Shown here in pieces: positions 27,092-62,557 of a stretch of DNA of 64,000 nt. The position numbers were made by a program, and so were the translations under genes. Position 1 is the stretch's first letter. Each line of letters starts with the position of its first letter. The stretch lies in assembly GCA_964187785.1 (NCBI GenBank), contig OZ076409.1, positions 32,428,001 to 32,492,000 on the forward strand, written 5' to 3'. The DNA comes from Amphiscolops sp. MND2022 (lineage: Eukaryota). The notes beneath the pieces are model-generated. The model searched no databases. It saw only the letters and a list, made by a program, of their open reading frames with translations, and had not been told where the DNA came from.

Positions 27092-27537
27092 CTGAAACAG
27101 AGAGCATGTTAAAGAAGCAAAAACAAACCCGTGTGTTGGTCAAAGGGATTCAAGATTCACTACTATTCCCCTATCGCCCATATAGTTGTGATATATAGAA
27201 ATCGATGGTAGATGAATAACATCGATCGATAGCAACGTCCAGTGCTGGAAAAAAAGTGACAATTATTGCGGCTGAAAAATGAGATAAAAAAGCAACGCCC
27301 GGTGCTGGAAAAAATTTATCACCGCGACTTCCTATTTAAGAAGAAAAAGCAACGCCATGTGCTGGAAAACGTGAGTGCTTTTAGGAATCCAACGCAAAGC
27401 AACCCCTGATCATTGATGGTTCCCCAGCCTTCGAAAAATTGAAGGAAAAATTTTAAAAGTACTTTTGAATTGGTACCTGTTTTAAAGAATTTTTTGACGT
27501 AAGCAAATCTACCGATAAATTGATAAGTCTTACTTAC

Positions 27538-28700
27538 TTTTTGGTTGCAATCGCAAGCCATTCCTCAAAAGGTTTTTGATTCTCCTGTCTTGGCTCATCA
27601 ACAAAGAAGTGTTTCTTGCCCTTTGCCAAAATGAGCATTACAGAGGAGCCGGTGAAGTCCTGATTCCAGTTAGTTTGCGCTACAGCTTCTGAAAGTGGCA
27701 GGTAGTCACTGATTACTGATGTGAAATCAATTGCTAACTGGTTTTGGGGGCTCGAAGAAGCCCTCATGCAATAGCCAAAGGAAACGTCTGCTACTACTTT
27801 GGGCAAACAAAAACGGTAAACCGTCCCGCTATTTGAATCCGCGTTGAAGTCAATTACATTTATCGGATGATAATCGAGCACACGATTGTGATCATCACTG
27901 TGCTCCAGAAACTCCTTCATAGTAATATTATCTACATTTTCTTGAATTGCAGAGAAGCAGACGTTGATTTCAACATTCCAGGGAATTCCCTCTGTTACAC
28001 GACGACAGGACGTCAAGATTTCAGCAGGAGGAGTTGCGATACCAGGAAGTTTGTTGTTACACTGGCCAACAACAACAGGTTTCGAAGGGCTCCCGTTGAA
28101 AAACTTGGATCCAATGCCGTCCACATTAAGCACATCAAAATCATTCGTGGTAGGCAGTGCTGTTTCAAACACATGCTGCTGAATGAACACAGAACGAACT
28201 TCGACTCCATTTGGAGGAAGCGAACTGAAGTTTCTTGAGTAAGAGGCAACGCCCTCCACTGCAGTCTCCAGCTTTTTCACTACCGCGACTTCTTAAAGGA
28301 CAACGGCTTCAGTAGTACCCGTAAATGTTTCTTCGGAGACTTCACTTCTCGCGCCTAGAGGAGCAAGGGATTCCAATTTAAATTGAAGCGACTCGTCACT
28401 TGAGAAACGACGGCCCTCATCCGCGGGATATCCTACTTCTGGGGTCTCTGGAACAGAAAATTCCAAAACTGCGCTTTGGTCGACAAGAGTTGCATTTTCC
28501 TCAACTGCGCCAGTGGATGCAGTTGGCTTTGGTTCCAAAAACGTGAAAGTTGTCACCGTTTAGGAAGTACTGGTAATGGCTGCAGCAAGTTGGCACTTAG
28601 GTTAGTGTCGGGATAGATCGAAACTTCGAGTCACTGTTGTGCCACAAAGTTCACACTTGAAAAAATCTTTTTGGCGTTCTAAAACAAAAGACTCCTTATG
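27538..28700 (-). pseudogene. C2HC zinc finger, linker and JmjC N-terminal exon (copy B)
   Basis: CELCGTTVTRSFDLSRH*PKC at ~28595-28660. ORF 27534..28280 has HPINVIDF...CLPKVVADVSF...LPLSEAVAQTNWNQDFTGSSVMLILAKGKKHFFVDEPRQENQKPFEEWL. Donor gtaagt at ~27537. Confidence 0.8.
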
Positions 28701-31700
28701 CAAAGGAATGAAACGGAAGCCATAGAGAATGCTACAAAGTTTCACTTGGTCCAGTAAAAAAATTGTCATAATCGGAGTTTATCGATCAATCTTAGATGTA
28801 ATCAAGTCACAGTTCGTGCGGTGCAACACCCAGTGCTGCAGAATGAGACCGTTATTGCGCCTTAAGGTTCGAAGAAAAAAACAACGCCCGATTCTAGAAA
28901 ATTGAGGTTGTTTTTGTTCCTGAAGGTGTTTACAAAAATATCAATGCCCGGTGATGGAAAAAAACTATCGCGCCTTGTTATTATCACGCCTCTTCAGACA
29001 GACAACTGTCTTATGATAAGAGTCTGAATCCAATTTAAAAAACAGTTCATTCAAAGTATCAAATACGACGTAATTTGATCTCTGAACCTATTTGTTTCCA
29101 ACTTTGATTTTTGAAGTTTCTTTCAGGAAGGTACTAAGGGAAACATCCTCGATTTCGATCACCTGGGCATTGATCCAAGTGATATAATGGTTTTCATATA
29201 TCAATCGGCACAACGCCTCGATTAATCAGGTCAGAAGACTCTATTTGAAAGAAATGAAGCAACAAATTTCAGCCGAACACCTTGTGACACTTTCTTTTTG
29301 GCATCAGAAAAATGAAAAAACAAAATTGACCTACGTCACAGAAAGCAAAATAATTTGACTTCACTGGAAAACTGATGTCAAGCAACAGATAGTACGATTT
29401 TCGTTTCGAGAACGATACATAGTTTCTACGAAAAACTTTTGTATGGGAAGGCCTTTAAAAAAAGCGCGAAACAATTCAACGAGCCACTGTCATGGATCAC
29501 ATATTGGTAATCATATATTACTCAGGACAGGGCTTGTCAAACTATGTCAATAACAGGTTATTCTAACATATCTCACAAAAAACTTGAATTTGAAAAAGCA
29601 ACAAGTTTATCCGAACACTTTGAGACTTTTTCGTTTTATGATTAGAAAATTGATAAAAAATGCCCGCGTGAAAGAAAGGAAATAAGACTATTTACACTTG
29701 GAAACTAAGACAAGAAAACAGATACTACATTTGTTTTGAAGAACGATACATATTTTCACAAAAACTTTTGTTTAGGAGGCCTTTTACAACACAAGCGCGA
29801 CGCAGTTCAACTAATCACGATCATAGGAAACATATTGGATTCCACATAATCCTCGAAAAATGACTTGTCAAACATGCCAAAAACAGATTAATCAAAACTA
29901 TCTCCCAACAATTTGCCATTAGTAGTCAATTTTGCAAGTATCGAAACGCTTTCAAACAGAGACCACTTTTGGTTTTGTTTCGAAAAACTATGAGAAACTC
30001 AAAAAAAAATAGAAATGTTGAAGAATGGTCTATAGTTCCAGCCACCACTTGCAGGAAAGCACAGTCCAGAATAAATTTTCAATACACATAACGTAACACT
30101 TTGTGACAAAGACTGCTTCAAACTTCCTACAATGGTTTCATTGAAGGAAGCGAGAAGGTCTTGGTCTCAAAATTGCTGAAGAAGGAGCTGACAAACGATT
30201 TCAACCATTACTACCGGTAACAATCTATTTCGATCAGAGCAGAAACAAAAAACAAAAGTAAACGCTTCTTCAAGCAACCAGAATTTCTTCATGCGGATTC
30301 ACTCATCTAACAAAAAGTATTGTGACACTTTGATAAAAACATCGTAACAATTTCAGTCTAAGACTGCACCCTTTTCCTTTCAGTGGAACAATTTTGAAGG
30401 ACACAAGTAGGTCTTGGGATCGAAAATGTTCAACGATGAATCAAGGCATCGTTACCTCTCTTGCTTCCGGTAACAAAATATTCCGACCAAAACGAAACAA
30501 TATCGTTTTACGTGACCTAATTGGCCCTGTCGCCAAAACTTTTGCTATAGTGTAGTGTTCATATAGTCCGAGCATTCCGTCCAGCCGTAAGAGCGTCTAA
30601 GTTTTTGTTATTTATGTGATGTTCTTCACAGATACAGAAGGAATGAGTTCTACAAAGGTTAAAAAACTATCAAAAAGGTGTCTGTCCAGGACTCATTAGG
30701 ATATTCTCTCAGTAAAATTTGATTGAACGCAGAAGAACAAAGGGTAATATGTAACTTTTGTAAGCAGAAACGATCATGCCATTGCAATGTTCATGTTCGA
30801 CATGTGTTGCTGATTTTTCAGTTGCTAAGAGGGTGAAAATCATAGTGGAAGGTCGAACATTCTACAGGAGTTCGACCATTGCCCCTAAATGCGATTAACA
30901 GCAGACAATGTGTTTCGTGATTCGTTTATTTCATTTCGTGATTTTATGTCGACGAAAATTGGGCTTGGAACCAAATGATCAGGTTCAACTTGATTGCATC
31001 GTATTTGTTTGAGACTTCAAACGCAAATTTGAAACTTGACACCTTTATCATTTCTAATTAGTAACGCGATGTGCTTGTGATTACTACATCTTTATTGTGC
31101 TTTATTATAAAAAAGAACTGGTGGAAATAGCTGTGCCCGAAGCTTGAAATATGTTTGAGTGAATATTTGATTAAATTTTATTGTGGAGATTATTTGACAA
31201 TGGCGTCTTCAACACAAAAAATCATTTGGCCCTTTTGGACCAAAAGGTTGAAATTTAAGGAGAAAGAGAAGGATCCGTTTCTGCTGGAGGTATCAAAACA
31301 GCTGTAACGATCCTCTAAGTATTTGGATTCATGAAAAGTTTTCTTATTAGAGAGGTTTTTTTCAAGAACAGATTGAGTTTTTGTCATAGCGGGGATTCAA
31401 AACAAGGTGTACCTGGGTGTGGAATAAGACACATGGTTCAAAGTAATCACAGCAAACATCAATGCTGGTAACGAACGTTCGGACAACATCCTTACCTCGG
31501 TTCAGCGCTTTCCCTTCTTTCATTTTTACAAGTTACCAAGCTTTAATTTTAAACAAAATGATGGTTTTTAGATAACTGGACAGCCGTTCAGACAAAGCAA
31601 CCCCAGATGCTGGAAAAAACTGAGACAAATATTCCAACCTAAATTTTGAACGAAAAAGCAACGCCCGGTGCTAAAAAACTGTTATTAGGCGGTAACATTT

Positions 31701-40528: not shown

Positions 40529-41649
40529 GGGTATCTGAAGGAACACCAGTAAAAATAACATCAGACTGTATTCAAGCGGAGTTGTGTATTATATTATGTA
40601 TACGTTTGTCTTTCGGCTCCGTGTGCAGAGAGGAAATTGTCTTATGATTATACTGAGCCGGGAAGTGGTCAAACGGACGCTGGTTGTGAATCCTTCAAAG
40701 GTAGCACTTTTTTATTGAAATCACTGGCTGCACAAACGCCGTAATCTTGGACCAACTTCCACCACGTAAGTATGCATGCACGTTCAAACATACAAGTAAG
40801 GTATACCAATACCTAATCCAAAAAGAAAGCTGCAGCGGCTGTAAAATTCGTTGCGTTTCTGGCCGAGGGGAATTGTTGGTTTGTTTGAGTTTTCTATTTT
40901 CTTCCTTTTGTTATGCGTGGAAGTTGTCTTAATAATTAATCAGTTTTTATAGCCAACGCTTGAGTTCAGCAGTAAACGGCAATAATGATACACAATGTTG
41001 CAGTTTTGAAAGTATCCGGTCACATTCAGCTTTTTCCTTGTGTCGCTCTGTGAACGCATTGATTGCAATTCAATTTCACATACACTATATTTTTAGCACC
41101 TACATATTCCCCAACTCAACTTATTTCTCAGAGAGTTGCTTCTAATCTCTAAAAACTGCCACTTTTCCATCTACCAATTTTAGTGTTACCGCCTACGTTG
41201 TGCAATTTACCACAACACACCAACTCTTTCCCATTCCATTTAATGAATAGACGACCAAGAACTCAGACACCGAATAAGATAATTGAAATTCAAGTTTCAT
41301 TCATTACTTTTCATATTCATCAGCTAAATATATTCAATTTGTTTTCTGTGTACGACTGAGCAATTGTTATAAGTGAATCTCTTTATATTAAAAAGTAATG
41401 TTTTTGATATAAAGTTTCATTGTTTCACCATCTGCCTATTTTATCACAGTCGCCACATCGCTCATTAAAGGTTAGTTTTGTCAGCACATACACTTTGTAC
41501 TCTTCAGCCATTTTATATCGATATCAGAAGTGTCGAAACAGCGCCGATGGTATTCTACGTATTCTACTATTCTGAAGTGACATATGTACTAACCTACATA
41601 CATACTAACCTTTTTGACAAATATTTTGCGTTGTTTAAGCTACTGCTGG

Positions 41650-43338
41650 TGTCGCAGTTTTGCTCGCCTATATGAGTCTACTGAACTTTCCCTAGACCTC
41701 TGTCCACTATTTTCCTGCGTAAAACACGTTTCAGGACGACGTTTCCATGTTTTCTGTGAATTTCCTACTTCGGGGTTCCCTTGTAGCCCACTGGACCTTC
41801 GGTCCCCCATGGTGAAATTATTCGTCCTTAGGCCAGGATGTAGCCCGCTGGACGCTTGGTCCACCATTGTAAAATTAGCTCTCCCCTGCACTTCTAGTGT
41901 ATTTTGTATGAACGGAAGCACAGTATCAGTTATTGCAGCCGTGATAGCATTTTGATACTGAGAATTTAAGCTGTTTTAATTTCATTTAGTTTCTTGGACA
42001 ATTGGTTCGCAATTTCTTCATTGATTAGTCTAGTTGTATCAATGGTAGCTTCGCTGTTTTCTCTACTATTAGTAAGTAGCGACCTAAAGTCTTCACCAGT
42101 TACAATTGAATTCCGCTGTGGCCTGCTAGAGTCTGAGTCTAAATTAATATCGTTCTCACTAAGGTCATTTTAATCGTTGTTTCTTGAATAACTTCCTAAC
42201 ATGACATCAACATTTTCTACATCAGACATGATGTCTAATCGTCTTGGATGTCTCTCCTTAGCATTTTGTTTTCTAGTAGAAGCCATTGAAGAATGACTCA
42301 ACGTTGCAACAATCAATTAACTGATTATCTTGGATAATTATTTCAAAGCTGAATAGTAAGTACAACAGGTACGTGAAACAAATTCAGAGCTAGATCAAAA
42401 GAGTAGCAGTTTGTTCGTATGGATTGTGATTGAATTCGCACAAGATTGAAAACGCGGTCCAAAAGTTTCTCCTATATATAGTATTCACAGCATGACAAGC
42501 TAAATTATAATAGTCATGGTACTAAAAACAGCAACTGGGTTTTTTTAGGTTTCATGACGTCAGAATTGCATCATTAACTAAGCGTCTAAATATAACATCA
42601 AAGCGAGACTGGGGCGGGAAGGTAACCTGGCTTTCAGGTTTGGCATGGGTTACAAAAGTCCTAAAAATAGATTGGCTACATGTTTTATCCAAATAAAACA
42701 TGTCATTTGAATATTATGATGTACAATCAATCAACTAATAATTTCAAAACTGCCCTAAAGTCCAAATCACTACATCACGTTAAGTACAATAGCTTGTTGA
42801 CTAAATACATCCAATGTGAACCTTTGATCCGCGTAGCTACAGCATCATATGCTTGTTTTGCCGGAGTGGCAGTAAATAGTACCATAGCAGACTTGTGGTC
42901 CGCGCGGCTACAGCAAGTATATATAATAGTACAGCGATGTGATTGGTCAATTAGATTGGGACGGTGTGTATACCAAGCGTTAACAAAAATTCATTAGAAC
43001 TCGTTTCCTTATTGCGTTCAATTGCAAGCTTACAGCACAGCTAATTTACATTCAGTTTATAATACTACTGCATCTTTCAATCAACTAAACAGGCACAGGA
43101 CTTTACTACTCAATTATACATATAGCCCCGTAGATTACTATTAGTATTGTGGCCGTGTGGACTGCAAGTTCTTATGGAGAAAATAAAAAATAAGAACAAT
43201 AAAATAAAAATCAGTTGTAGTTTTGAAGTACCTTGGGTATTAATCCCTAAATAGGGAGTACTCCGGGTAAGGGGTTGATTCTCGAGTGTTCTTGGGGAAT
43301 TTGATAGTAATTCCCGTCGCAGGCGGTAGCCTGAGACA
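41650..43338 (-). repeat. 3' LTR (1689 bp)
   Basis: Direct repeat of 55691-57384; preceded on the minus strand by a short purine tract AGGGAAG (43339-43345). Confidence 0.95.
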
Positions 43339-44067
43339 CTTCCCTAGGGACTAAAAGAACCGTCCCTTGGTTCATTCCTTCTAAGTAGACATTCCTACGT
43401 CTTTGTCGTTCCTGGTAAGATTCATCTCGTCTCGACGTTGACTCCAGGTATGTCAATACTGCCGTCTCACGAATTTGTTCGTAGGAGCGACCGCAGACAA
43501 TACATTCCCCGTAAGCTGCTGCTTTCGGCTCACCGCAATTTGCTCTAAATCGTACACTAATTTCTTGTATGTGCGAGTTCAGGGGAGCAGTGAAGTCCGT
43601 GACGTTCGGTCCAGTATAGTCATAACGCCCATGAGTAAGACCCCGTTCACTCAGCGGGGGAGAAAGAGGTGTGTCCACTAACGGGGTCAAGTTAGAACAT
43701 TGACTGATGGGACAATTGTTCTCTTGTCCCAATGCGTTCGGACCTGTCACAAGCTCTACTTTTGTGGATTGAAATTCTTCTGGCCACAGGTCCACTAAGT
43801 CGTTCCACGGGAACTCAGGGAATCAATCTTCAACACAGTCGGAGAGATCTGCCGTCATCTTGTGGGCGAAGTTGGTTTTGCCTGCGTCACGGGGACTTGC
43901 CGGTAGCATGCAATTACTTCTATATCGCTATCGTCAGAATGACGCCCGGTCCCTTCCACAGAGACTGACAATAAGCCGACATCCATTTCTTCTTCCTCCT
44001 CTGACGAGAAATAGGCCGGACTCACTAGAGAAGTTGTCATTTCGTCAAAGGTAAATTGCATTTCCAT
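43247..44067 (-). pseudogene. Extra sense-strand ORF3 of the Gypsy element, unknown function
   Basis: ORFs 43855..44067 (acidic, ATG start) and 43247..43795 (ECIVCGRSYEQIRE...), probably one frameshifted gene; the stop lies inside the LTR. Confidence 0.6.
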
Positions 44068-45226
44068 TTAGAATTGATACTTTCTGAGAGAAAGATTTCC
44101 GTGACAATTTTGAAGTTTTGATAATCAACTGTTTTGCACTTTTCAAACGAGAATGATTGGTTGTCTTGGAGATGCTCGGGTCCCCGGTTTTCCCTTTTTG
44201 CGGGAGTTTCCCGGCGGGAACATTGTTTCTGATCTAGCCTAAGTTTTGTCAAACATCCCATATTTGTAATTTTACCCAATTTTTCTCATTGATAACTAAA
44301 GTAAACTTCATGTTAATAGGTCCTTGAAGGACTTTCTAGTTGTTTACATAACTACTTGATAGCAGTGAATAGGTGTAATAAGTGTTAACTCAAGTTAACT
44401 GCCGGTAAATAAATTCACCATCAAAGACCATCGGTCCGCATGGCTACTTCAACAAAACTGACCAATGGGGTGACGATGATAAATTAACGGTACAATGGAG
44501 TAAAAAATGAATGAAAATAGCGTTTTCATCCAAGTTAATCCTAATCTACGGGACAAATTTCCGTTGTGATGAAATAAAGCATGAAATTCACTGGCATTTT
44601 CAATCCATGATATTAGAGGCGATGATTAGGTAATGGTACCGAATATACATGAAATAAGTAACGCATAAATGTAGTTGAAAGGACTATTTGGTAGGCCACG
44701 ACGTCCATTTATTAGGCGAATAATTGACCATTTTTGAGTGTTTGCTCTCCAAGTACTTTGTCTTTGAATCAAGTAAAGTCAGAAAGTAGAAATAATCATA
44801 CCACAAGGTAAATATATGTCCTTGTGTCTGTGCCATAGTACTCTACTATCTCACCTTTTCATCAATTGAATTGTATATTATCTTATTGATTCTCGTTATT
44901 TTGGACAAAAACTGCGGACTAAGTCAGAACAGCTACAGAAGCTTCCTAGCCAACAGGAGCCAATACCGTAAAAGAGTCTCCCTGTCCCGACAGTCCCTCA
45001 CCCAAATTAGTACACCAATCAGCCGATTTGGACCGAAGAATTCTGCTTCCCCGTCATGGAAATAGCATCAGGTTGGTTCTTTCAATTTTGTCTTGACTAA
45101 ACTTGATCAGTGTTTAGGTTTGACTATTTTACTTCCTACATCATGAAATGTTTTCACATTGTATTGAATAAACTGAACTTCACTTCCGGAAGATTTCAAA
45201 AGCGGTAAGATGAATTCTTTTGCAGG

Positions 45227-48200
45227 ATGTTAACCGCACGAATTTGTTCCTTTCTATTTAGGAAAAAATCAAACCGCCAACCTGTCCAAGCGACAACTGA
45301 AAGTAACAATATGAGTGGCGATACTGAAGTTACTGAAGATGAAGTGGCCGAGAAGACTTTTGGACCTGAGGTGGAGAAAAGCGCAACTATGCCCTTACCA
45401 CAAACATCCGACCAACAACTCCTATCTAATGTGCTCCCCACTGCCATAGAGATAATTGAGGAAAGTTCCTCCCAAGCCTCAGTCGTCCAAGGAACGGAAG
45501 GAGGATTGTCCCCTGCTTCTTTAACTGAAATGGACCCAAAGTCCCTTGGGCTACAATCTTCAGATTACTCTCCCTCATTACTCAGGCTGCTTGGCACAGA
45601 TAACAGCAGCTCTGAGGCTAGCATGCAAGCTTACCTTTCCCGTAAACTCGACACTCGAAGAGAGGAAATAGGTGAACCGGGACCCAGCAGTAAACAGACA
45701 AAAGGAAGTATGAGCGACCCAAATTCTGTGACTCCAGCCCTTAATTTGATACTGGAAACCACCGAACCGAAACTCTCTGAACCGGCTGTCACTTTCTTAG
45801 CTCCATTGCCAGGAACTGAGCCACAAATTGAATCCAAAGGACCACGAGGTTCGATAAAGAGACCTAGAGTCGGTCGTAGTTTTAATGTGGACATCCAACC
45901 TCCTCCCATGTTTGGACTCTTATCTTCGTATTTGGTTAACTCTGATCATTCAGGCTTGATTCTAGCCAGGAGAAGCAAGACAATCCTTTCAGACCGACGA
46001 AGACAATCAGTAGTTCTGAAGTTGAATTGGAAACCGACACTGAATCCGCCTCTCGTCCCGCTGGTTCCACCATTGCCCAAGCCATATCATCCAGACCCAA
46101 AGGTCCGTGCTTGCACTTCAGCGACTCTGCCAGTACCATCAGCCCAACAGCATTCTAAAGCTCACCCAGGAGTACTACACTTCGGCCTAGTGGGCGCGCC
46201 CTTGTCAAAGAATTCTTTGCCGCATCTGAGTCTTTCAACCTTCCCAAGGGATACCATGTAATCGCTTTCACAGAAGACCAAATCAGTAGTGTCTTGAAAG
46301 TTGTGGCAGAAGAGACCGCCAGGTTAACTCAGGATGTAATGAAAAAACTCATCCGTCAGGTCGGCGGACTAAGTTTAAGGTCCCGAGAGTAGCCGGTCCC
46401 AACCAACCAGTGGAACACCTGAGTCAGGAAAATGCGGGAGAGGAAGCATTGGTTCTGGTCGCTACAGCGATACCAGCGGAGCCCTCCAAAGTGACGACGA
46501 CTTCTCAAGCATTGGCTATTCTTTCGAGGATCAAGAACCAAGTAGGATTGTCGATTCACCTCGCGCCAGGATTGAGGCCAGTAGCAGTCGCAATGATCAG
46601 GAATTTGGACCCAACGTCTTTGAAGCTGGAAGCCCTGAGGAGCAAACCTTAGCAGCACTCAAAGCAGAAGCCATCAAGGATGAAAGCAAGCGTGCTCGCA
46701 ATAAACAAGGACGTTTCGTCCAATTGGCTACATCCCAGGAACAAGAAGGAAGGTGACCCGCTCATGCAAAATTATGAAGGAAGCCTATTTCAAAGGCATG
46801 GAGTGGACCCGTACGTTCGTTTCAGGACCTGTAGACCCGCGGTGGAACCCATAAAAATTTTACTGTCAAATCTGTGAAGCCAACGTTCCGATATACGGGA
46901 AAGGGGCAAGAGAGATCCTTCGCCACCATTCCACTGAGAAGCACTTTCGCAAGGACCAGAGGTGGAGGTATGAATACCTGTACACCGTAGACCCTGTCAC
47001 CAAGTCCAAGATACATCAGGTCAGGGGAAAGGATGGCAAGATTTTGACTCCCTACAAGCTAGAATTGGAGCCCCCCAAGTTCAAACTGGCAGAGTTGGTA
47101 GAGATAGGACAGAAACTCCCCTTCTACGATGAATACATGTCCGGCGCGGACGATATGGCTTCCTCGTCAGACAATAGGGCTCGGATCCAACTTTCTGTCC
47201 TTGGTCGATTTCTACCCGCCTATGGCGATTTGGAAGTGCTGAAAACTTTCTGGAACAATGTAGGGGTCATTGTCAACCACCAGGCGATCTTTACTGATTT
47301 CAACTGGAGCTGAAAACGATTGACAGTAAGTGTTCCCTCAAAATCATTCCAAATACTATGCCCCAACTAATTTTGGTAACAATGTCAAGAGTACTACAAA
47401 ACCATTTCTTTGTTTAGGTGTTATTTCATCACATGTTCTTGGAAATTGTCAACGATGTCGCTGCTCAGATCAATGCAAATGGAGAGTAGGCTGTTGAGTT
47501 CGCGAGTGACGGTGTGTTCATGCTCGCATTCGTCCGATTCTAGCGCGAAGACGAATTTTGTCGCGTGTTTTTGAAACGGACTGGAAGGCTGCAAGGACAG
47601 ACCGATGCCGAACTTTGTTTAATTGCTTACATCATGGCCGCGATTTCTACCACTCCCAGATTAATCAGTTGCACGGGCTGTTAGTCCATACAGTTCCTTT
47701 AGTGTCCAGAGCCCTCCCAGATTCGAAGAACTGTCCCTGCCTCAATGGTTGCACCGGAAAAGCCAGAGCGTTTTTGGGCGTATGGACATCTTCTCCACTT
47801 TGCGCTACCTGGTTGTTTCGTTGGGAGGTACCCTGGAACTGGGCTGGGTCTTACTTTCGCAAGAGTTGTCAAAGGTACGTTGTGCCTAATTTTACGCATT
47901 TTCTAATCCTTTTGGCTTTTCTAAACCGAGTCAATAATCGGGCGTTAGGTCTTAACACTTCTACTTTCATGCTTCAGGCCATCCGTACTTGCGAATTAGA
48001 CGTATGTGGGTTGCCCGCTCTGTGTCGTGAGCTCCTTGACAACTGGCCCAAAGTACACTCCTACTTGAGTAAGTTGCGCCGACTCAAGAGATGCAGGGAG
48101 TCCGTAAGCAGGTGAACTTTCTATTTCCGTTGTAGCTACTGGTACCTCAAGTCCGTATATGCAGAAACATCTGATTGTTGTAGCCACAGAACCTGGAGTG

Positions 48201-49425
48201 GTCAATCGTTTATGACAGCCTTTTCCCGAGTCGGCTTGAGTTGTTTTACAGCCTTGTCCAGGACTGTAAGTGGGATTTTGTTGCTTCGGTAGTCACTATG
48301 TTAGCCAGACTCTCACTTAAACGTTTCCTTTTAGACACCAGCAGTTTTACCCTTAACTTGAAGTCACGATGGGACAGGGGTTTCCATGTGTACAAGGAAT
48401 TGTTCCAATTCTTGTTCAAACTAGCCCGCAGGTGCATCCTTCCCAGTAGTCTCCCGATTGACAATGACAACCATGGAACCCTTCAGTTCTTATTCTCTGA
48501 CGCTAAAGCCTTAGTCGTGGATGATTTCAATCTCGCCTTGATATTGGGTGCAAGCAAAAAGCCGAAAAAGCACGCAATGAAGGAGAAAATAAAGACTTGA
48601 GCCTTGAGGAAATTGTTGCCAACAACCGTGATGAGTTTGGAAGATCTGCCAGAGGATATGTAGCCTACCTGGTAGGGGCCACCAAGAAGCTCAACCGATT
48701 CACTTCAGATATTGTGAGGGGACTAGGGTCATTTGTCTTGGAGATTCTCCTAGTGGACCCTGTGGAACAAGCCACTTACTGTTTCAAACAACTTTTCTCC
48801 AGTTTCAGACTCCGTGGGGTAGCAGATCCAGGAGAAGAGCCTGTGTATACAGATGAGTTGAGGCGTCTTCATCCCGATATGCAACAACCGAAACTGCTGA
48901 TTGCTAACGCCATCGATTTTATTTCCAATCAAGAAGCTCTCAAGACCAGACGTCACCTTACAAGGATCTTTCGCCTTTGCTGTCTTTGCCTGGACGAACC
49001 TAGATTTAGTTACCCGGCCGTAAAATTTGATTCCGCGAGGACTGACGATCCTACCTGCAGTATGTTTGACGTCGGGGTTCCTATACAGTCGTTTCTCGGC
49101 TGAGTTTCCTGTGGAATTGACGCGCTCACATCTGAGGCCTCCGTTTCTCGATTCTTTCTTCTAGAGCAGGTGTTTGGTAATACTGGCCTGGATAGTACCT
49201 ACAGTCCTTGGGACAGTTTCAGTCATTTTGGGCGGCAACAGATTAGAGAGACCCTCAGTTGCAGCCTTAGAAAACCATCCGGATCGGGGGCTGGCTAGCC
49301 TAATTCAAGCAAGTCTCCAAAGACGGTCCAAATATCTCCTAGCAAACCTGCTTCCCAGCGCAGTGCTCCAAAGACTGAAGAGGCTCCAATGTCAAAGCCT
49401 AGTAATTCGAGTGGGGGTCTTTTAA
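45227..49425 (+). pseudogene. Antisense, intron-containing cargo gene in the Gypsy element (BED-like zinc finger, hAT-transposase-like segments)
   Basis: Chain of + strand ORFs; FYCQICEANVPIYGKGAREILRHHSTEKH at ~46858-46945; GT-AG introns predicted at 47326-47417, 47875-47977 and from 48104. Confidence 0.65.
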
Positions 49426-49589
49426 ATTATAATTGTACTGTATGTACACATGTGCAGTAGTCTTCCTCTTTGTATATATTTTGTTGCAGTTATTTGTTCC
49501 AGTTATCCACATTATGCACGTTGTCTGCAAGTCAGTTCGGTCTCTGCTAATGTATTTGTTCAGAGAGGGACGGTAATTTACGTATCTGT

Positions 49590-52500
49590 CTAGTATCTGT
49601 ATTCATCAGTGAAGTTGGTGGTGGGGCTAGGACAAAGGTTATCTTTTCCTCCTCTAGGACTTTTATTGTCTGCAATCACCTCATCGTTTTCATTATTTAA
49701 TACTTCGGGCACGATTGTATCGCTCCCTCCTGACGATTGTTGATCGTCAACCCTGTCATTCATGCGTTCTGAAGTGGTTTTTCAAGCGAAGCAAAGTCAT
49801 CATTTTCGTGAGGCCCGGTGGACCCAAGGTCCTCGTCGGTGAAAGTTTCATCTGGCGCCCTGGCGCCCTTTTCATGAGGACCGGAGGACCTAAGGTCCAC
49901 GTCGGTGAAATTTTTTTCTGGCGCCATGGCATCATTGACGGGATGGTATCATTGACGGGCACCATCTCGGCTCGTAGGAATTGCGATTTTTTCTGTGGAA
50001 TTGGGAAATTCTCCAAAATTGGTTTCTCAAGTGATAACATAGAGTTCGTCTTGCGGAATAATAATTTCATCATCCGGTTGCAAATTTCCTTCCGGTCTGA
50101 TGTCTTGTAGGACGGTGTTCGGTTCGTATTTACGCAGTGTAATACGATGTAGAATCTGCGTTTTGGTGGAATTCAGTTTTCTGACTATGTAATTTTTGTT
50201 TGGTAAGATCTTTCCTACATTATAGGGACCTGTCCATCGATATTCTCGAAACGGAATTTTTGATCATTGGTGGTCAGCGAGAGGTTGTGAAATGAAGCAA
50301 TAATCGTTTTGTTTCAAACGGGCTGCTTTTGCCTTTCGGTAGTAATATTCCCTGTATTTCAAGTAAAATTGCGTGATGTTTTTTTTGTGGAATCGAGTAG
50401 TATTTGCGTGCGTCTTTGAAATTCGTCTGCCAAACCAGTAGTCGGATGGACCTTCGGGTTGGGATTAAGGCCCAATTTGTGATTTTGTGGCGTGGTAGGT
50501 CGTATTATAGTTTATTACGGCTAAAAGCAAAAGATTATGCCATTGTCGCCTGTAGTCCCCTGCGGCCATGGGCATTTTAGTTTCGTTTTGAGGCAATCGT
50601 GTGTGCGTTCGAGTTTACCAATTGTTTGTGGGTGTTTCGTAGTTGCGCATTCTACTTGAATCCCCAAAATTTGAGCAATTTCGGCCACCAATTAGGACGT
50701 AAAGGCCGTACCTTTGTCCGTGATCAAGATGGTGGGCAAGTAGGTGTGCTTGGTCATTATGTCAATGATAACCTTTGCCGTGTTCGTAGCCGTAGCGTCC
50801 GTAACTGGGTAGGCAAAAAGGTATCTTGAAAATACACCCATTGCGGTTATTATGTTTTCGTATCCTCCACTTGAGGGTAGGTTAGGCAACAAATCTATCT
50901 GCATAGCGTCCTCTGGACCTAAATCCCATTCGGGCAAATTAGGCAATTCCGGAGTGATGGATGAGTTTGGGATTCTTTTGTCTTTCATACAAATTTCGTA
51001 TCCTTGAACCCATTTTTTAAAAATTTTTGCGATGCCAGGATAATAATATTTTAGTCGGATTTCGATGAGCATCTTGGAAATTCCTGGATCTTTATTGGCT
51101 TGGCCGTGTAAGGTGTCAAATAATTGTGGGACTAGATGTTTTGGTAAAAGCACCTGATTGTATTTAATGGATCCTGTTTCGTCAAAATACTGTCTGGTCA
51201 AAATTTCATCCGTGACGGACAGTCGGTCCATTTGGCGACAGTAGTGCTGGTAGCGGGTATCCTGCAATAAGATGGTTTCTGAGTAATTTTTTCTCAATAT
51301 TTTAAGTCGCAATTGCTGTAGGATGACGTCGTTGTTTGCTCTACTAATATAGTGTTCGCGTAGGATAATTTTTGAAATGTTAAAAGTTTGTGATAATCGC
51401 TGTTGTGTGTAAAAATTTTTTCGAATGAGATATCCGGTAGTTGATTTGTTGGGTGATCTCTAGCTGCCTTTTTACATTGTAAAATTTGTTCTTCTGTCTC
51501 ATCATCATCCTCCGTATAGAAAATTTGTTCCTCGTCGGACACTCCTGCTGATTGGAGGTGTAGTTCAACCAGTGTCGTTGGAATATCTTCTCTGATTCTG
51601 AGAATGTGTTTTTTTGGAGATTTTTCAAGACGGGACAAGTAGTCGGCAGCGGTGATGGTTTTGCCTGGAATATGGGCAATTGTGGAATTGAACTGAATGA
51701 CATAGTCACATGCGTTCCATAGTAATGGTGGAATGATTTTCGTCTGAAAAAATTGTGTGACGGATTGGTTGTCGGTGAGTATGATTACCGGTTTTGGGGT
51801 TCCTCAAAAGATATGTCCGAATTCCTTGAAGGCAAAGAAAATTGCCAAGAATTCCTTTGCGTAGATGGACATTTTCAGTTGGGTGGGACTAGAGGTCTGA
51901 TCCGTAAGCTACTGATGCGAAAGCTTTCTTCGTCGATGTAGATTTTTCGAGAAGATCGTCTTCAATGAGAACCGCGTACCCTGCGGCCGAAAAGCTTGCG
52001 TCAGTCATGAGGGCTATTTGCTTGTTCGGTAAGGGTTGTTTGAATGCTAGTTCACAACATCGGTCAAGGGCCTTATTGATCTCGGTGATTTTTTCCAATA
52101 GGTCCGGTGTTACCAGGACTTTTTCATCTTTAGTTAGTAATTTGAAAAACGGCGTTAGTTTTTCCGAGAGCCTCGGGATGTAATTCCGATAGTAGTTGGG
52201 AAATCCCAAATAACGTTGGAGTGCCTTTTTTGAATTTGGGAATTTGTATTTTCCAGGAAGTTTTGGACTCGTGGTCTCTGCGAATTCACTCCAGCAGGAG
52301 TGATGGTACGTCCCCGAAAATCAATTTCTGTTGCTCCAAAATTGCATTTATGCATTGTTAGTTTCAGACCAGCTTGTTGAATGCATTGAAATGTGGCCCC
52401 AAGGTTGTTGATGAGTTGTTCGGCGTCGTTGGCTGCGATGCCAATATCATCAACGTATTGGGCACATTGGTCTGCTTCTATGACTTTGTCGATAGAGCGA

Positions 52501-53990
52501 TATTAAGTCCTTGTGCCAATCTTCTGAATGCGAAGGATCTGCTGGCAAAGTTGAAAGCAAGCTTTTCGATGGACCGTTAGTCAACCATCTGAAAGCAATG
52601 ATATGCTTGCGAGCAGTCCAGTTTGCAAAATAGCTTTTTCCCGGCCATGTGTTGGGCTGCATCTGTGAGTGTACTCACCGGGTGATTGTTGTTTATGTAG
52701 TCATCCGAGAAGAGATTGTTGATTTTCCGTAAATCGACTAAAAGTCGCAGTTTTCCATTAGGTTTCTTTTGGGCAAAAATTGGGCTTGCGTATTTGGACA
52801 ATGGGAGTGTTGTAATTATCCCATAGCGGTGTAGTAAAGCTAATTCAACAAGGATGTCTTCCTTGAGGTTGATTGGCGTTGGTAAACTCTGACTATAGGC
52901 CGGGGAGTCATCTTTTGGTGTCAATTTGACCTTGAAGTCCTCGTTCATACCTATGTCAAATCGATGTCTTGCGAATATGTTGTGAAAATCGACAAGTAAA
53001 TCCTCTATGCAAGCGATTTCAGCAGGTTGTAACATAGAGTATGTCCAGTCAAAGTTATACAAAAACTGTTGTCTTGACTCAGGGTTATCCTGAGGATTGA
53101 GATTCTCTAGTTCCTGGAGATTGATGAGTTCGGACAAAATCCTTTTCTGGATCGGTGTGTGGTGCTGAGGGTCCCCAGGGCCCTCTGGTGTGGGAAACCA
53201 GTAGTTCTCCTTGAAGTTCTCAGGTTTTGTAGATTTGATCAAGCTGCTTGCATAGTGAGCAGCACTCTCAGGGTTACCTTGCAGGGTCTATAGGTTTTAC
53301 ATATTTCGTCTGTTCTGGTGTCAGAACAGTGAAAGTGGCTACTTGCGTGCCTCTTTTGAGGGTATACGGACTGTCAGTAAAGTTGTTCAGATGAACTGAT
53401 GTTTGACCATTGGTCAAAGTGACTAGAGCAGCACAGAAGGCGATATCGCCGTCGTCTGTGAGGATGTTGCTCGGTTGAAGGATCCCAGTAACTGCAGTGT
53501 CTTTGTACAGTTGTGAAGCCAGCTGGACCGAGTGTCGGTCATTAGGTGGGATGGTTACATCCTCTCTGATGCAAATGGGTTCCATGACGTTAGTATATTT
53601 GTGATCTGCAGTTTTTAATTGCATGGAGAAGAAAGGGAAATTCAGGACACCTTGTCTCATGTCCAGGATGGTGTTGTTCCGTTGGAGGAATGAAAGACCA
53701 TTCAGTGGACTGGTGATGTGTTCCATAACTATAAAAATCTTGTGGAATTCTATGTCTCTGAATTCAAATTTTAGCTCGACTGTGCTCTTCGCAGTCTCCA
53801 GCTGACCATTAGCAACCATAATTTGGAAGTTGGGTGCCGGGCCTACTTTGACAATAGACTTAGGGGCTAATATTTGGATTTTACGTAGATCAGCTTCTGG
53901 GATTGCGCTAGATAGAGCTCCCGTGTCTACAAGGCCATCTAATATCAGTTCGCCGAATTCCATTGGTAGAGCATTCGTCGTTAATTTTTG
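49590..53990 (-). pseudogene. pol: Gypsy pol: protease, RT, RNase H, integrase (frameshifted)
   Basis: GLVDTGALSS (protease); SPIFAQKKPNGKLRLLVDLRKIN, KLDCSQAYH and QYVDD at ~52445-52460 (RT); MTDASFSAAG, KEFLA, LTDN (RNase H); IDLLP...FSRYLFAYP and TDKGTAFT (integrase). Confidence 0.95.
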
Positions 53991-54614
53991 AGGCCAAGAT
54001 TGGTTGTCAGCGGTACATAGTCTGGTTCCCCTGTTCTGGTGACTACGGTGTTCACAAAGCGTGCTGTAACGGCTGTAGCCAGGGAGACCTGTGTTCCCAC
54101 ACGGTGAAATTCGTCGTCTGCATCAGAGTGACTCGTTTGATGAGTGAGGTATGTACCATGTTATCATGGGTCAACTCGGACCTTTGCAAGGACCGTATTC
54201 AATGCGTGATCAGTTTCATAAGAATCTGGTTCTATGTTCTGGTCTGGTTTGTTAAAATTATGGTAGAAGTATAGATGATGTTGATTGTACCAATTAAAGT
54301 CTCAAAACCATAGTCAGGGGCAGTGTAGTACGGGTTATAGTCATCAATAAGTGGTATAAGTCGTATAATCGAAGTATCGTTTTGTAGTCTTTTGGACATA
54401 GGGTCCAACGTGGTGGAAAAGGAAGGTGGAGCCTTCATCTGCTGCTGCCAGTCAGCTGATGATGTTTCTTTAAGATATGTATAGTATTCAGTATAATATA
54501 TGTTTGAAGGGTCAGTTATTACGTATTGTCGGACACGTATTGTCGGAGTTTATCAATTATTTGGAGTCGTGGCAAATCTAGTTTTTTGGGTTTTTTAAAA
54601 TTGGTGTCGTTTGC

Positions 54615-55691
54615 TTATTTTTGCGTCTTCTTGGCTGGTGGACGTGTCGGCAATGGTGGTGTCCTCCAGTTTAAAGTTTTTGGGCTTGAGGTGGGCTCCA
54701 GCGCCTTTCCAACATCGTTCCGCCGGGTGTTTCGTTTTGTCGCAAGTTGGACGTTTTGGATTTCTTTCTTGTTATCCTGTCCGTCATTGCAGCGCTGTTC
54801 TTCCTTTCTTTTGAGTTTTCGGGACTCACCCTTGATATGTCCGGGTTTTTTGCAATAGTTGCAAGTAATGTTTGGATCGATGCCCGAAGAAAGGAGGCTA
54901 GTTCCCGGTCGTGGTGCTGTAGGGGCAGTGGACAATGTTGGTACTGGATTGTCGTCCCCCTCCTTTGACCTCCCCCCAAGTTCATTGAGCTCAAGCTCGC
55001 GTTCTAAATGAGTGACTATTTCCTCATAGGTGGCGTTTTCGAGTGTAGCCATTTTGACGGAACGTTTCAGTTTTGGTGGCAGTTTGGCATAAAGGAGACT
55101 GTCGATCATGGCCTGGGCGTTCTCACCAAACGCTTTTTCAGCTCTTTGATTTAATTCCTCATGGAAGTCTAACAGTTTCATGGTATTTGGGTCAAACATC
55201 AAGCTGTGCCATTTGTGTTTGGCGGTCGCCTGGGACTCGGGTTTGACATATTTCCGACGGAATACTGCCAAGATGTCTTCCAGAGTTTGCCTGTTTGCCG
55301 TATTGATGTTGCGGAAAGTTTGTAACGCATTCTTGCGTAACAATGAACGAAAATGGTTTTTTTGTTGCATTTTATCATTGTGTGAAAGAGATCTTCGAAA
55401 AGTTCGAATTTCTCCGATTTGCCATCGAACGTCAGTGTAGTCGTGCTGACTAGGCGTTCCATCAGTGTTTGTGCTGACGGAATGGTTGTTCATGCCAACT
55501 AATACTTCAGCAAGACGGTTGGTGGGGTCTAAAGGTGTAGTTTGACTTGCAGGTTCCTGGAACTGTGGGGTATGGTCCAAAGGTTCGTCTGCATTAGAGG
55601 TTTGACGTTGCAGGGTTTCACGGCATTGCATGGGCCGTCCAGTGAGAAACTCAGGAACCATATGGGGGGTAAGGTTGGCTCCTGTCACCAT
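54615..55691 (-). pseudogene. gag: Gypsy gag with zinc-knuckle relic
   Basis: TFDGKSEKFELFEDLFHTMIK, LLRKNALQTF, LYAKLPPKLKRSV and CNYCKKPGH; frameshifted. Confidence 0.9.
55673..55690 (-). promoter_or_regulatory. Primer-binding site
   Basis: TGGTGACAGGAGCCAACC immediately follows the 5' LTR end ...CGACA on the minus strand; cognate tRNA not identified. Confidence 0.75.
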
Positions 55692-57384
55692 GTCGCGATT
55701 TTGCTCGCCTATATATGAATCTACTGAACTTTCCCTAGACCTCTGTCCACTATTTTCCTGCGTAAAACACGTTTCAGGACAATTTTTCCATGTTTTCTAT
55801 GAATTTCCTACTTCGGGGTTCCGTTGTAGCCCACTGGACCTTCGGTCCCCCATGGTGAAATTATTCGTCCTTGGGCCAGGATGTAGCCCGCTGGACGCTT
55901 GGTTCACCATGGTAAAATTAGCTCTCCCCTGCACTTCTAGTGTAATTTGTCTGGAAGAAAGCACAGTATCAGTTATTGCAGCAGTGATAGCATTTTGAAT
56001 CTGAGAATTTAAGTTGGTTTTACTTTCATTTAGTTTCTTGGACTTTTGGTTCGCAATTTCTTCATTGATTAATCTAGTTGTCTCAATGATAGCTTCGCTG
56101 TTTCCTCTACTATTTGTAAGTAGCGACCTAAAGTCTTCACCAGTTACATTTGAATTCCGCTGTGGCCTGCTAGATTCTGAGTCTAAATTAATATTATTCT
56201 CACTAAGGTCATTTTCCTCGTTGTTTCTTGAATAACTTCCTAACATGACATCAACATATTCTACATTGAACATGGTGTCTAATTGTTATCAACGTCTCTC
56301 CTTAGCTTTTTGTTTCCTAGTAGTAAGCAATGAAGAATGACTCAACGTAGCAACAATGAATCAACTGATTATCTTGGATAATTATTTCAAAGCTGAATAG
56401 TAAGTACAACAGGTACGTGAAACAAATTCAGAGATAGATCAAAAGAGTAGCAGTTTGTTCGTATGAATTGTGATTGGATTCACACAAAATTGAAAACGCG
56501 GTCCAAATGCTTCTCCTATATATAGTATTCACATTATGACAAGCGAAATTATAATGGTCATGTTACTAAAAATAGCATCTGGGTTTTTTTAGGTTTCATG
56601 ACGTCAGAATTGCATCATTATCTAAGCGTCTAAATATAACATCAAAACGGGACACTACGGGGCGGGAAGGTAACCTGGCTTTCAGGTTTGACACGAGTTA
56701 TAAAAGTCCTAAAAATAGATTGGCTACATGTTTTATCTAAATAACACATATCACTTGAATTTTATGATGTACAATCAATCAACTAATAATTCCATAACTG
56801 ACTTAAAGTCCAAATAACTGCATCACGTTAAGTACAATAGCTTGTTGACGAAATACATCCTTTGTGGACCTTCAGTCCGCGTCGCTACAGCATCATATGC
56901 TTGATTTGCCGGAGTGGCAGTAAATAGTACCATAGCAGACTTGTGGTCCGCGCGGCAACATTAAGTATATATAATAGTACAGCGCTGTGATTGGTCAGTT
57001 AGATTGGGACGGTATGTATACCGAGCGTTAACAAAAGTTCATTTGAACTCGTTTCCTTATTGCGTTTAATCGCAAGCTTACAGCACAGCTATTTTACATT
57101 CAGTTTATAATACTACTGCATCTTTTAATCAACTAAACAGGCACAGGACTTTACTAATCAATTATACATATAGCCCCGTAGATTACTATTAGTATTGTGG
57201 CCGTGTGGACTGCAAGTTCTTTTGGAGAAAATAAAAAATAAGAACAATAAAAAAAATCAGTTGTAGTTTTAAAGTACCTTGGGTATTAATCCCTAAACAG
57301 GGAGTACTCCGGATAAGGGGTTGATTCTTGAGTCTTCGTGGGGAATTTGATAGTAATTCCCGTCGCAGGCGGTAGCCTGCGACA
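55691..57384 (-). repeat. 5' LTR (1694 bp)
   Basis: Direct repeat of 41650-43338 with many substitutions; TG...CA termini. Confidence 0.95.
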
Positions 57385-57915
57385 GCTGGTAATCGGTCAA
57401 GTCTTTCATAACAAACATCTTTTTTCCACTCGTCAAAAGATTACTCTTTCAGAAATCATATTTCAGTTTTCAATGGACAAAAAGCATTAAATCGTCAATA
57501 TGAAAATTTTGCGTAACTTTATCATTATGGAACTATTATAATCTGTAGTTATTGTTCACTTGGAAATATGTTAGTACAAAGATACAGATTCATTCATAGC
57601 ACCAATTTGACTGATTTGAGTAATTCGATTCAACTTTTGTTCTAGTGAAATTAACGCCGCACCTATCATAAAAAAAACAAGACCCCGAAGTATATTGTTT
57701 TCTATAAACCGTTCCTTTCTGATGATCGCTGACGTAACACTTTAGTGCTTTGACAATTAAAGTGACAACCGAACCCAGGTACACATTGTCTCGTATCCCA
57801 ACAAAAAGAAAACACCATTTATTCTTGCATACAAAAAAATAATTTCTTATAGCTGCGTTGCAACCCCTAGTCGAGCCTCCATGAACTTTTTACACTTGCG
57901 ATAAGCAAATGTTAT

Positions 57916-58652
57916 TGTAACGACCGGCTAGCGACGCACATTTAGGAAGAAGGACAATGCCCAGGGTTCTTAAACAGGAGACCGTTGTCTTACTACATCC
58001 CTAGACATTAGATTTTCTTCCCAATATGGTCTCCTAGGTGGACTTTTCTTTCGTCAAAGGAGGCTCCTCTAGGTAGAGCTCCGAGGCGACGTGCCGGCAC
58101 TCTCAAAGTCCGGACGCGCCCCACAAGCCTGTAAAAACGAATCCTAGGTTCCTAACATACATTCCTGCCACCTCTTACACACTTCCGAGGTCCAAAAAGG
58201 TGTCTAACTGAAATACATTGTATTTGGGGAATAATTTCTAAAATACAGATCTAGTAGATCAAAAACCATCCAAATACTCTGTAAACGGTGACAAAACACG
58301 TGGATAAGCCCCAATAACATTACAGTTTAGGGTTGGTTGTCAGTTTGGCCTCTGGCATCATTCCTCATCTTCGAGGCACAATGGTCTCATTTGGCATTTT
58401 TCTGCCGAAACCCTGTCTTTTTGCTGTCAGCTGGCACAAATCCTGATTCTCTCGCCTTCTGGGTGAGTGATGACATCTCTGACATTCACGTTCCTGGGGG
58501 GTGGCGTCTGCTTTTACCTTCTTTTTGCTTCTTCTACGGTTTTCTTACCTGCCGGGTCGGTCATCTTGAATGTGCTTGTTTGATACCGCACATTTCGAAT
58601 TTCTGATCGAAATTTTCAAAAACCTTTGCAACGTCCCTTGCTTAATGTTACA
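57916..58652 (-). repeat. LTR (737 bp)
   Basis: TGTAAC...GTTACA termini; matches 61869-62557. Confidence 0.9.
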
Positions 58653-61868: not shown

Positions 61869-62557
61869 TGTAACGACCGGCTAGCGACGCACATCTAGAA
61901 AGAAGGACAATGCTCAGGGTGCTTAAACAGGAGACCGTTGTCTTACTACATCCCTAGACATTAGATTTTCTTCCCAATATGGTCTCCTAGGGGGACTTTT
62001 CTTTCGTCACAGGAGGCTCCTCTAGGTAGAGCTCCGAGGCGACGTGCCGGCACTCTCAAAGTCCGGACGCGCCCCACAAGCCTGTAAAAACGAATCCTAG
62101 GTTCCTAACATACATTCCTGCTACCTCCTACACACTTCCGAGGTCCAAAAAGGTGTCTAACTGAAGTACATTGTATTTGGGGAATAAGTTCTAAAATACA
62201 GATCTAGTAGATCAAACATCATCCAAATACTCTGTAAACGGTGACAAAACACGGGAATAAGCCCCAATAACATTACAGTTTAGGGTCGGTCGTCAGTCTG
62301 GCCTCTGGCATCATTCCTCATCTTCGGGGCACAATGGTCTCATTTGGCATTTTTCTGCCGAAACCCTGTCTTTTTGCTGTCAGCTGGCACAATTCCTGAT
62401 TCTCTCGCCTTCTGGGTGATGACATCTCTGACATTCACGTTCCTGGGGGGTGGGGTCTGCTTTTGCCTTCATTTTGCTTCTTTTACGGTTTTCGTACCTG
62501 CCTGGTCGGCCATCTTGAATGTGCTTGTTTGATACCGCACATTTCGAATTTTTGATC
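61869..62557 (-). repeat. LTR lacking its last ~45 bp
   Basis: Homology to 57916-58608 stops at tttcgaatttttgatc, just before the tRNA-headed repeat. Confidence 0.85.

Follow-up and report, generated by a model that had tools for sequence, protein, structure and literature searches.

An intron-bearing antisense gene of probable hAT transposase ancestry in Ty3/Gypsy retrotransposons of Amphiscolops

The stretch of DNA that was analyzed, called the window in the following, consists of 64,000 nucleotides (nt) of contig OZ076409.1 of Amphiscolops sp. MND2022, and all coordinates are window positions. It contains a decayed Ty3/Gypsy element of 15.7 kb on the minus strand (41650-57384), and between pol and the 3' long terminal repeat (LTR) of this retrotransposon a further gene, with five exons and four introns, is located on the plus strand (45210-49432). 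This accessory gene is real, old and selected. It is likely, though not proven, to be derived from a hAT transposase, and it seems to have lost the catalytic residues of these enzymes. Its product is probably a nuclear protein that binds DNA or chromatin and helps to sustain transcription of the element against silencing.

Structure, selection and position of the antisense gene

A first-pass annotation of the window had proposed a plus-strand coding sequence between pol and the 3' LTR, running opposite to gag-pol, and the open reading frames (ORFs) of the window as well as its self-comparison bear this out. Aligned with one another, 11 copies reveal four poorly conserved blocks, each bounded by GT and AG. 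Two of these had been anticipated, namely 47326-47417, which was said to keep the frame and is indeed of phase 0, and 47875-47977; multi-copy alignment upholds both. The third donor had been placed at 48104 (tcc/gtaagc), but this GT is not kept in the young subfamily, and the donor was reassigned to the CAG/GT at 48112, which is present in 24/24 copies. The fourth intron (48266-48334) had been overlooked, and the start, previously given as 45227, was corrected to the ATG at 45210, which is retained in 12/12 aligned copies. Additional 5' introns in the window subfamily were considered and rejected, as this ATG and the codons following it are conserved in frame. The stop codon (49430-49432) lies about 160 bases from the stop of pol. 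The gene is thus composed of the following parts, all on the plus strand:

45046-45209, +, conserved non-coding block with CATCAGGTTGGTTC, ACTTCCGGAAG and AAGATG across the start codon (12-copy alignment)
45210-47325, +, exon 1, encoding a low-complexity N-terminus of about 500 amino acids (aa), a basic stretch, a C2H2-type finger and a helical segment
46864-46944, +, CxxC-x16-H-x5-H finger within exon 1; C, C and H in 17/17 rows, the last H in 16/17
47326-47417, +, intron 1, 92 nt, phase 0
47418-47874, +, exon 2, RNase H-like core in which catalytic aspartates are not conserved
47875-47977, +, intron 2, 103 nt, phase 0; missing precisely from L138-L142
47978-48111, +, exon 3, from the multi-copy alignment
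48112-48183, +, intron 3, 72 nt, phase 0; missing precisely from L143/L144
48184-48265, +, exon 4, from the multi-copy alignment
48266-48334, +, intron 4, 69 nt, phase 1; absent in L097-L099 and L138-L142
48335-49432, +, exon 5, helical region aligning with the hAT insertion domain, low-complexity tail, no ERxFS

Splice sites were tallied in 24 of 30 loci, the six partial loci being excluded, and 189/192 boundary dinucleotides are canonical. In 18 more divergent rows, 69/69 of the introns that are present read GT..AG, with lengths from 65 to 255 bases, and the four intron positions also hold in clades at 40-60% protein identity. The majority fraction at codon positions 1/2/3 is 0.90/0.94/0.67, and in intron interiors it is 0.58-0.80. 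Because of the canonical sites and the codon-position pattern, the signal of the gene model exceeds chance. When its four introns are removed, the young copy L009 reads through 1,319 codons without a stop and terminates in TAA. Each of the remaining 23 copies has at least one frameshift, and the window copy is a pseudogene, with eight in-register stops and nine indels (eight of them frameshifting) in comparison to the young copy.

The motifs of the upstream block, CATCAGGTTGGTTC, ACTTCCGGAAG and AAGATG, each occur once in the element on the plus strand near 45046-45209, and they may resemble ETS and YY1 sites. CATCAGGTTGGTTC hardly varies even between clades with unalignable flanking DNA (window 45046-45213); it may serve in the promoter, be bound by the protein, or act at the RNA level as a signal on the genomic strand. 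The conserved block as a whole is likely to be the promoter or the 5' leader of the antisense gene.

The antisense gene is under strong purifying selection. In 21/21 pairs of natural copies, compared over 755 core codons, the proportion of nonsynonymous differences (pN) is 0.08-0.25 and that of synonymous differences (pS) 0.73-0.89. Synonymous sites are saturated in 20 of these pairs, and the sole computable ratio is 0.029, while the opposite-strand reading of the same DNA, used as a control, gave 0.88-1.61. The N-terminal 500 codons, of which 53% specify S, T, P, G, E or D, are looser, with pN values of 0.24-0.43 and ratios of 0.17-0.33 in the three computable of six pairs. Because the selection acts on the protein, an RNA-only role is excluded.

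A DNA search of the genome itself (1.07 Gb) yielded 44 matches from 40 scored of 1,031 candidates. Ten copies were extended by 10 kb per side; both LTRs were found in eight of them, two are truncated, and the plus-strand gene adjoins pol in 10/10. The LTR pairs of the eight complete copies, 1.2-1.6 kb of which were aligned, are 97.8-99.6% identical. A protein search gave 7,901 first-look candidates, of which 120 were scored (62-100% identical), and divergent queries reached clades at 50-73% and then at 24-30% identity to the query. The integrase is arranged tail-to-tail with the antisense gene in 65/66 distant copies, down to 25% identity (19/20, 5/5, 1/1, 20/20 and 20/20 in the individual sets); the single exception is L084, where an LTR-end remnant follows the gene instead of the integrase. 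These flanked loci, which were drawn from the top hits and mostly have open frames, place the gene at the same position in many subfamilies, so that it is not a single-copy feature. None of the 76 copies examined with flanks is a stand-alone host gene; it has to be set against our interpretation that a free-standing relative could be missed, the copies being picked from top hits.

In a profile search of 1.84 billion proteins, 685 relatives were found at E-values up to 0.001. The best 150 of these have at most 419 residues, and no names are attached to the ten that were looked up. Because one relative is only 29% identical to its best match in this genome, the antisense-gene clade is likely to exist in other genomes as well.

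The first-pass annotation had also expected that the gene lacks flanking terminal inverted repeats, and none were found in four copies and the window: no inverted repeat is shared by the flanks among the five longest listed per copy in the four copies, and the window contains no inverted repeats of at least 30 nt, an 8-bp duplication not having been searched for separately. A nested insertion of a hAT element is ruled out by the fixed position, the purifying selection and the lack of terminal repeats. For the more general notion that the gene is such an insertion or a neutral passenger amplified with the element, one might invoke that the window copy is a pseudogene and that the genome holds many true hAT elements. 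However, the same position in 65/66 distant copies and the intron positions they have in common, together with the selection and the missing terminal repeats, leave this notion practically without credit.

Several structural variants were encountered. In the deep clades L203-L222 (25-29% identity) the boundaries of introns 1 and 3 are shared, intron 2 is absent and intron 4 is variable, and the N-terminal region is split. Partial internal tandem duplications of the gene are present in L095 (L095:414-4448) and L190 (L190:4897-5660), and intron 3 has a length of 994 bases in L185 (L185:4465-5458). The full elements L003 and L004 (G000:C3, 33 kb apart) have the same flanks and the same target-site duplication, and are due to a segmental duplication or to a duplicate in the assembly rather than to separate insertions.

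Probable relationship to hAT transposases

The CxxC..H....KH finger that had been pointed out in the window sequence is present (46864-46944), as are the segments IVNDVAAQINANGE*AVEFASDG and RRHLTRIFRLCCLCL. The derivation from a hAT transposase proposed on this basis is likely, on account of an RNase H fold, a structural match to Hermes and the alignment of finger and insertion, yet it is not proven, as Pfam is blank and the VIA-align comparison is non-specific.

The expected RNase H-fold likeness was found in a model of the core, for which the natural contiguous frame of exons 2 and 3 of L138 was used (207 aa, 40-row alignment). At a mean predicted local distance difference test (pLDDT) score of 66, the modelled core has the order helix-b1-b2-b3-a-b4-a-b5, which is the RNase H topology and suggests the RNase H-like catalytic fold of hAT transposases. 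Foldseek ranked Hermes first (E 6e-4); rows 1-3 and 5-9 are Hermes, and reverse transcriptase and integrases rank behind it. The leads from the ESM Atlas for the core (0.81-0.88) all belong, as far as they are named, to hAT RNase-like families, and for exon 5 the Atlas gave no usable match. VIA-align also supports an RNase H-like fold; it superimposed residues 1-109 of the model on Hermes 153-264 (Z 6.0, root-mean-square deviation 3.8, 101 residues).

At the level of sequence profiles, comparisons with Tip/THAP12-like (47 proteins), Ac-like (4), DUF659 (2) and integrase (44) profiles stayed at noise level, and the gene profiles gave a best E-value of 0.09 against 124 ORFs from 32 host hAT loci. 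A DUF4371 search of the genome had no match, its control being likewise silent, and a PHSNA-type pattern gave one near match in the genome. A fourth hAT group of 120 loci (L224-L343) was fetched with the motif PHSNA..ER.FS, which we take to be the mark of this clade, and 3/3 tested loci reach the PF05699 cut-off. Against this clade (all profile-profile E-values are pairwise) the finger scored 51, with E 2e-6 and all four ligands aligned (shuffled maximum 22), exons 4-5 scored 33-38, with E 1e-3 to 3e-3 (shuffled 17-18), and the alignment of the whole core spans 595 columns from end to end with E 8e-6 (shuffled maximum 9). Reversed rows and four other profiles remained at noise level against the antisense-gene profile. 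Finger, RNase H core and putative helical insertion occur in hAT order, and they are collinear with one hAT clade only.

The finger has been retained and the catalytic residues seem to be lost. The four finger ligands line up with their counterparts in the hAT clade and hardly vary in 17 rows that reach down to 18% identity, so that the gene has an N-terminal finger of the BED/C2H2 type, although Pfam BED itself is unmatched. A 27-row alignment of the RNase H exon has just four invariant residues, W, E, G and G. Strand 1 ends in E/A/V/L, the site before the strand-4 glycine is occupied by T/S/E/H/V/Q, and the third acidic position aligns, with low posterior, to a variable column; a conserved D, D, E triad is not discernible, since the ends of strands 1 and 4 have no acidic column. 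These column tallies support the earlier suggestion of a catalytically dead protein. For the CxxH after the core and the RW motif, no conserved C, H or W was found at the aligned columns (posteriors 0.26-0.34), and both motifs are likewise lacking from the 27-row alignment. The remark that there is no clear ERxFS held up as well: Pfam gave no PF05699 match for the gene and its relatives, and this C-terminal dimerisation motif is absent, the aligned columns having low posteriors. Judged from its sequence, the protein is built like a hAT transposase and is not a member of an active family.

A number of results speak against hAT ancestry and must be weighed here. Pfam had no match to the gene with the window ORFs, the exons and 29 database relatives, a PDB sequence search with four profiles returned only chance rows, and word-based searches detected no full-length relatives, which is weak evidence. 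With VIA-align, integrases and other proteins reached Z values up to 7.6, at or above Hermes, and the model of exons 4-5, although helical, is poor (pLDDT 49) and has no Foldseek match. The fourth hAT clade was chosen by a motif after three hAT profiles had failed, the RNase H exon alone does not exceed shuffled controls against any hAT profile, and the global alignment is lost once the finger is left out, although 241 columns can still be matched locally (E 6e-4). The columns of the catalytic positions have low posteriors (0.24-0.38) or are unaligned. An origin of this real and selected gene from another RNase H-fold protein, or from a domesticated host gene captured with its introns, would account for the weak hAT signal and its absence for the RNase H exon alone, and for a VIA-align result that does not single out hAT; it must also be considered that C2H2 fingers easily match one another. 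We nevertheless regard it as quite improbable, because three parts follow each other in hAT order and are collinear with one hAT clade only, because Foldseek and the ESM Atlas independently indicate hAT, and because 0/76 flanked copies are stand-alone host genes.

Cassette exchange, intron loss and possible function

Comparison of integrases and antisense genes revealed that the latter are exchanged between elements. Among 48 pairs (34 loci) with integrase DNA more than 90% identical, exon 5 is only 59-83% identical in 41, and the integrase tree and the exon 5 tree conflict at starred branches. For L086 and L139 the synonymous divergence (dS) of the integrase is 0.11, whereas the antisense gene is saturated. 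In 23 loci with a 3' LTR, the gene travels together with its upstream block, and ORF3, a second accessory ORF, travels mostly together with the U3 region of the LTR, while these two modules assort independently. In L091/L096 the likeness is 0.97 for the gene and 0.96 for the block but 0.40 for U3, in L082/L090 it is 0.95 for U3 and 0.65 for the gene, and five listed pairs are alike to 0.93-0.95 in U3 and to 0.63-0.71 in the gene. A cognate pairing of gene and U3 was rejected, L091/L096 and the five reverse pairs being discordant; the rank correlation of 0.81 between gene and U3 over all pairs reflects deep clades. Because the modules assort and the gene swaps independently of pol and U3, it is unlikely to be tied strictly to a single LTR or a single integrase.

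Three introns (2, 3 and 4) are precisely absent in other subfamilies, and the joins coincide exactly with the boundaries that had been predicted. L097-L099 lack intron 4. The junction pattern for a missing intron 2 retrieved five loci (reversed control 0), which also lack intron 4 and are Gypsy-borne in 5/5 cases. For intron 3 a narrow junction pattern had no match, and a second pattern found one locus, within an element with LTRs; the junction pattern for loci without intron 1 gave none. The exon 5 tree (34 loci) unites L097-L099 with L138/L139 in one starred clade and places L144 among intron-bearing rows. Because intron-less loci nest in intron-bearing clades, three precise losses are the simplest reading. 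Recombination with a spliced copy is the usual explanation for precise intron loss, and therefore the absences are indirect evidence of splicing. Intron-bearing genes thus persist, and lose introns precisely, inside an element that is replicated via RNA.

Taken together, we consider it probable that a five-exon gene, likely hAT-derived and without a conserved DDE triad, encodes a nuclear helper that binds DNA or chromatin and sustains transcription of the element against silencing. An ancestral element would have taken up an intron-bearing hAT gene backwards. Introns in antisense orientation are not spliced from the genomic RNA, and because of this they survive reverse transcription. Transcription of the gene would proceed from the conserved block that precedes 45210, and the transcript would then be spliced; occasional recombination with the spliced message could have produced the precise intron losses, and template switching between co-packaged RNAs the shuffling of cassettes. 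A nuclear location is suggested by the basic stretch that precedes the finger in exon 1. The protein may bind DNA or chromatin via the finger and may oligomerise via the transposase scaffold. Because the gene assorts independently of U3, the protein would act in trans on something shared, such as a motif that the elements have in common, the promoter of the gene itself or a host factor, and a strictly cognate LTR activator is argued against. A DNA-binding or anti-silencing role, which the first-pass annotation had already suggested, is inferred from the abundance and youth of the clade and from the many old cassette versions that it retains.

More tentatively, a DNA transposase might have been domesticated by the clade in the distant past and kept as a counter-defence cassette that is polymorphic and has its own promoter, the intron losses then recording the capture of spliced messages. 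If true, dozens of diverged versions (down to 25%) would be shuffled over near-identical pol genes, as for an anti-silencing arms race.

The sign of the effect might also be the opposite. With the same gene and the same origin, the protein or the antisense RNA could be a self-limiting repressor, like retroviral antisense genes. A kept finger on a dead catalytic core fits this equally well, and separately promoted antisense accessory genes can regulate and antisense RNA can feed silencing (PMC7264820). Against such a repressor, which we hold to be rather unlikely, stand the abundance and youth of the clade (7,901 candidates; LTR pairs 97.8-99.6% identical in eight copies), a position of the gene that does not overlap the gag-pol coding sequence, and selection at the protein level, which excludes an RNA-only role. 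A doubtful proposal is that the protein is a co-factor of the particle or of integration, i.e., an intasome tether, an aid to nuclear entry or a shield of the cDNA ends, which uses the DNA-binding and oligomerising surfaces of hAT transposases. It would make sense of the retained finger, basic stretch and transposase-like scaffold, and independence from U3 is compatible with binding to conserved LTR tips; however, integrases that are almost the same are accompanied by cassettes whose synonymous divergence is saturated, and this speaks against a tight pairing of the two proteins. The cassette swaps and intron losses are natural variants that separate the effect of the gene from those of pol and LTR.

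The host element and comparison with known systems

Self-comparison of the window detected a single long direct repeat (41650-43338 and 55691-57384, 92.5% identical), which corresponds to the LTRs of the host element. As is typical for Ty3/Gypsy elements, the LTR pair has TG...CA ends and a target-site duplication of 4-6 bp, and gag is followed by protease, reverse transcriptase, RNase H and integrase in this order. The features outside of the antisense gene are:

41645-41649 (left) and 57385-57389 (right), 5-bp target-site duplication GCTGG, read from the sequence
41650-43338, -, 3' LTR of the Gypsy element, 1.69 kb, TG...CA ends, 92.5% identity to 55691-57384
43250-44067, -, ORF3, second accessory ORF, in sense orientation, final codons within the 3' LTR
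49593-54549, -, pol, broken; protease, dUTPase-like, reverse transcriptase, RNase H and integrase in Gypsy order
54615-56340, -, gag, broken, with zinc knuckle; weak Pfam matches to Retrotrans_gag (E 0.025) and zf-CCHC (E 0.15)
55673-55690, -, primer-binding-site-like sequence, begins with TGG directly after the 5' LTR, read from the sequence
55691-57384, -, 5' LTR of the Gypsy element; the gag frame begins about 640 bases inside

The gag frame passes through the primer-binding site, and both LTRs (55691-56340 and 41650-42300) hold about 220 gag codons; in 5/7 young copies listed, a gag frame of 591 aa starts inside the 5' LTR. ORF3 encodes about 289 aa in young copies, with a CxxC motif and an acidic N-terminus, and had no match in Pfam; its position is taken in the deep clades by an ORF of about 255 aa on the minus strand. 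The dUTPase-like match between protease and reverse transcriptase (53277-53650) is weak (Pfam E 0.007-0.015); a dUTPase at this place is described for rotifer elements (PMC5408684). Elsewhere in the window, a second pair of direct repeats (57916-58608 and 61869-62557; 693 bases, 95.5% identical) encloses about 3.3 kb without long ORFs and is possibly a non-autonomous LTR element, a tandem array of 57-base units lies at 22983-23533, and several long dispersed repeats are found at 1-6900 and 24100-29300.

With hAT transposases (Hermes, PDB 2BW3, 4D1Q and 8EDG; clade L224-L343) the protein shares the finger, the RNase H core and possibly the helical insertion in the same order. It differs from them by the lack of conserved D, D, E, CxxH, RW and ERxFS and by its long low-complexity N-terminus, and unlike hAT transposons the gene has no visible terminal repeats and moves inside a retrotransposon. 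Domesticated hAT-derived host proteins (ZBED, ZMYM/THAP12-like, GTF2IRD2/FAM200) are nuclear and often non-catalytic, and in the antisense gene a transposase scaffold has probably been reused as well, but its owner is another transposable element with hundreds to thousands of copies. Domestication of transposases is known with the host as the beneficiary; here, the beneficiary is likely the retrotransposon.

Captured genes in LTR retrotransposons have been described before. Bdelloid rotifer elements carry ORF3 cargo, a GDSL esterase and a DEDDy exonuclease with intact catalytic residues (PMC5408684); these, too, are Gypsy-like elements of animals in which captured genes form modules downstream of pol, but their ORF3s are enzyme-like, and transposase and introns are unmentioned in the accessible parts of the description. 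In sunflower, Athila ORFs bear the Pfam label 'Transposase_32' (PMC11728184), and other co-opted accessory domains are reported from Arabidopsis (PMC13547354). A spliced antisense hAT-derived gene in an LTR retrotransposon was not found in the literature, most subscription papers and Repbase reports being outside the scope of the search.

The closest parallels are antisense ORFs between pol and the 3' LTR (aORF-3R), known from maize Grande (gene23), rice RIRE2, Silene Retand and Botrytis Boty, which are described as being of unknown origin and function and without similarity to other transposable elements; for Grande a separate promoter and a nuclear product have been shown (PMC7264820). Flanked copies and selection put the gene described here among them, and position, antisense orientation, presence in most copies and conservation are alike (PMC7264820). 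A second parallel is TRP28 of Retand (Transposase_28, PF04195), an antisense ORF in nearly all clusters with predicted DNA binding and a proposed regulatory role; its role is given as unknown and its occurrence as limited to flowering plants, and the accessible text leaves introns unmentioned (PMC11963269). Antisense orientation, predicted DNA binding and a proposed regulatory role are common to both, whereas the gene of Amphiscolops has no match to PF04195 (Pfam on ORFs, exons and 29 relatives). It also differs from the aORF-3R, plant and fungal cases for which the text available to us describes no introns, in its four conserved spliceosomal introns, its length of about 1,300 codons and its likely hAT ancestry, and an antisense accessory ORF thereby gains a traceable source and a testable DNA-binding domain.

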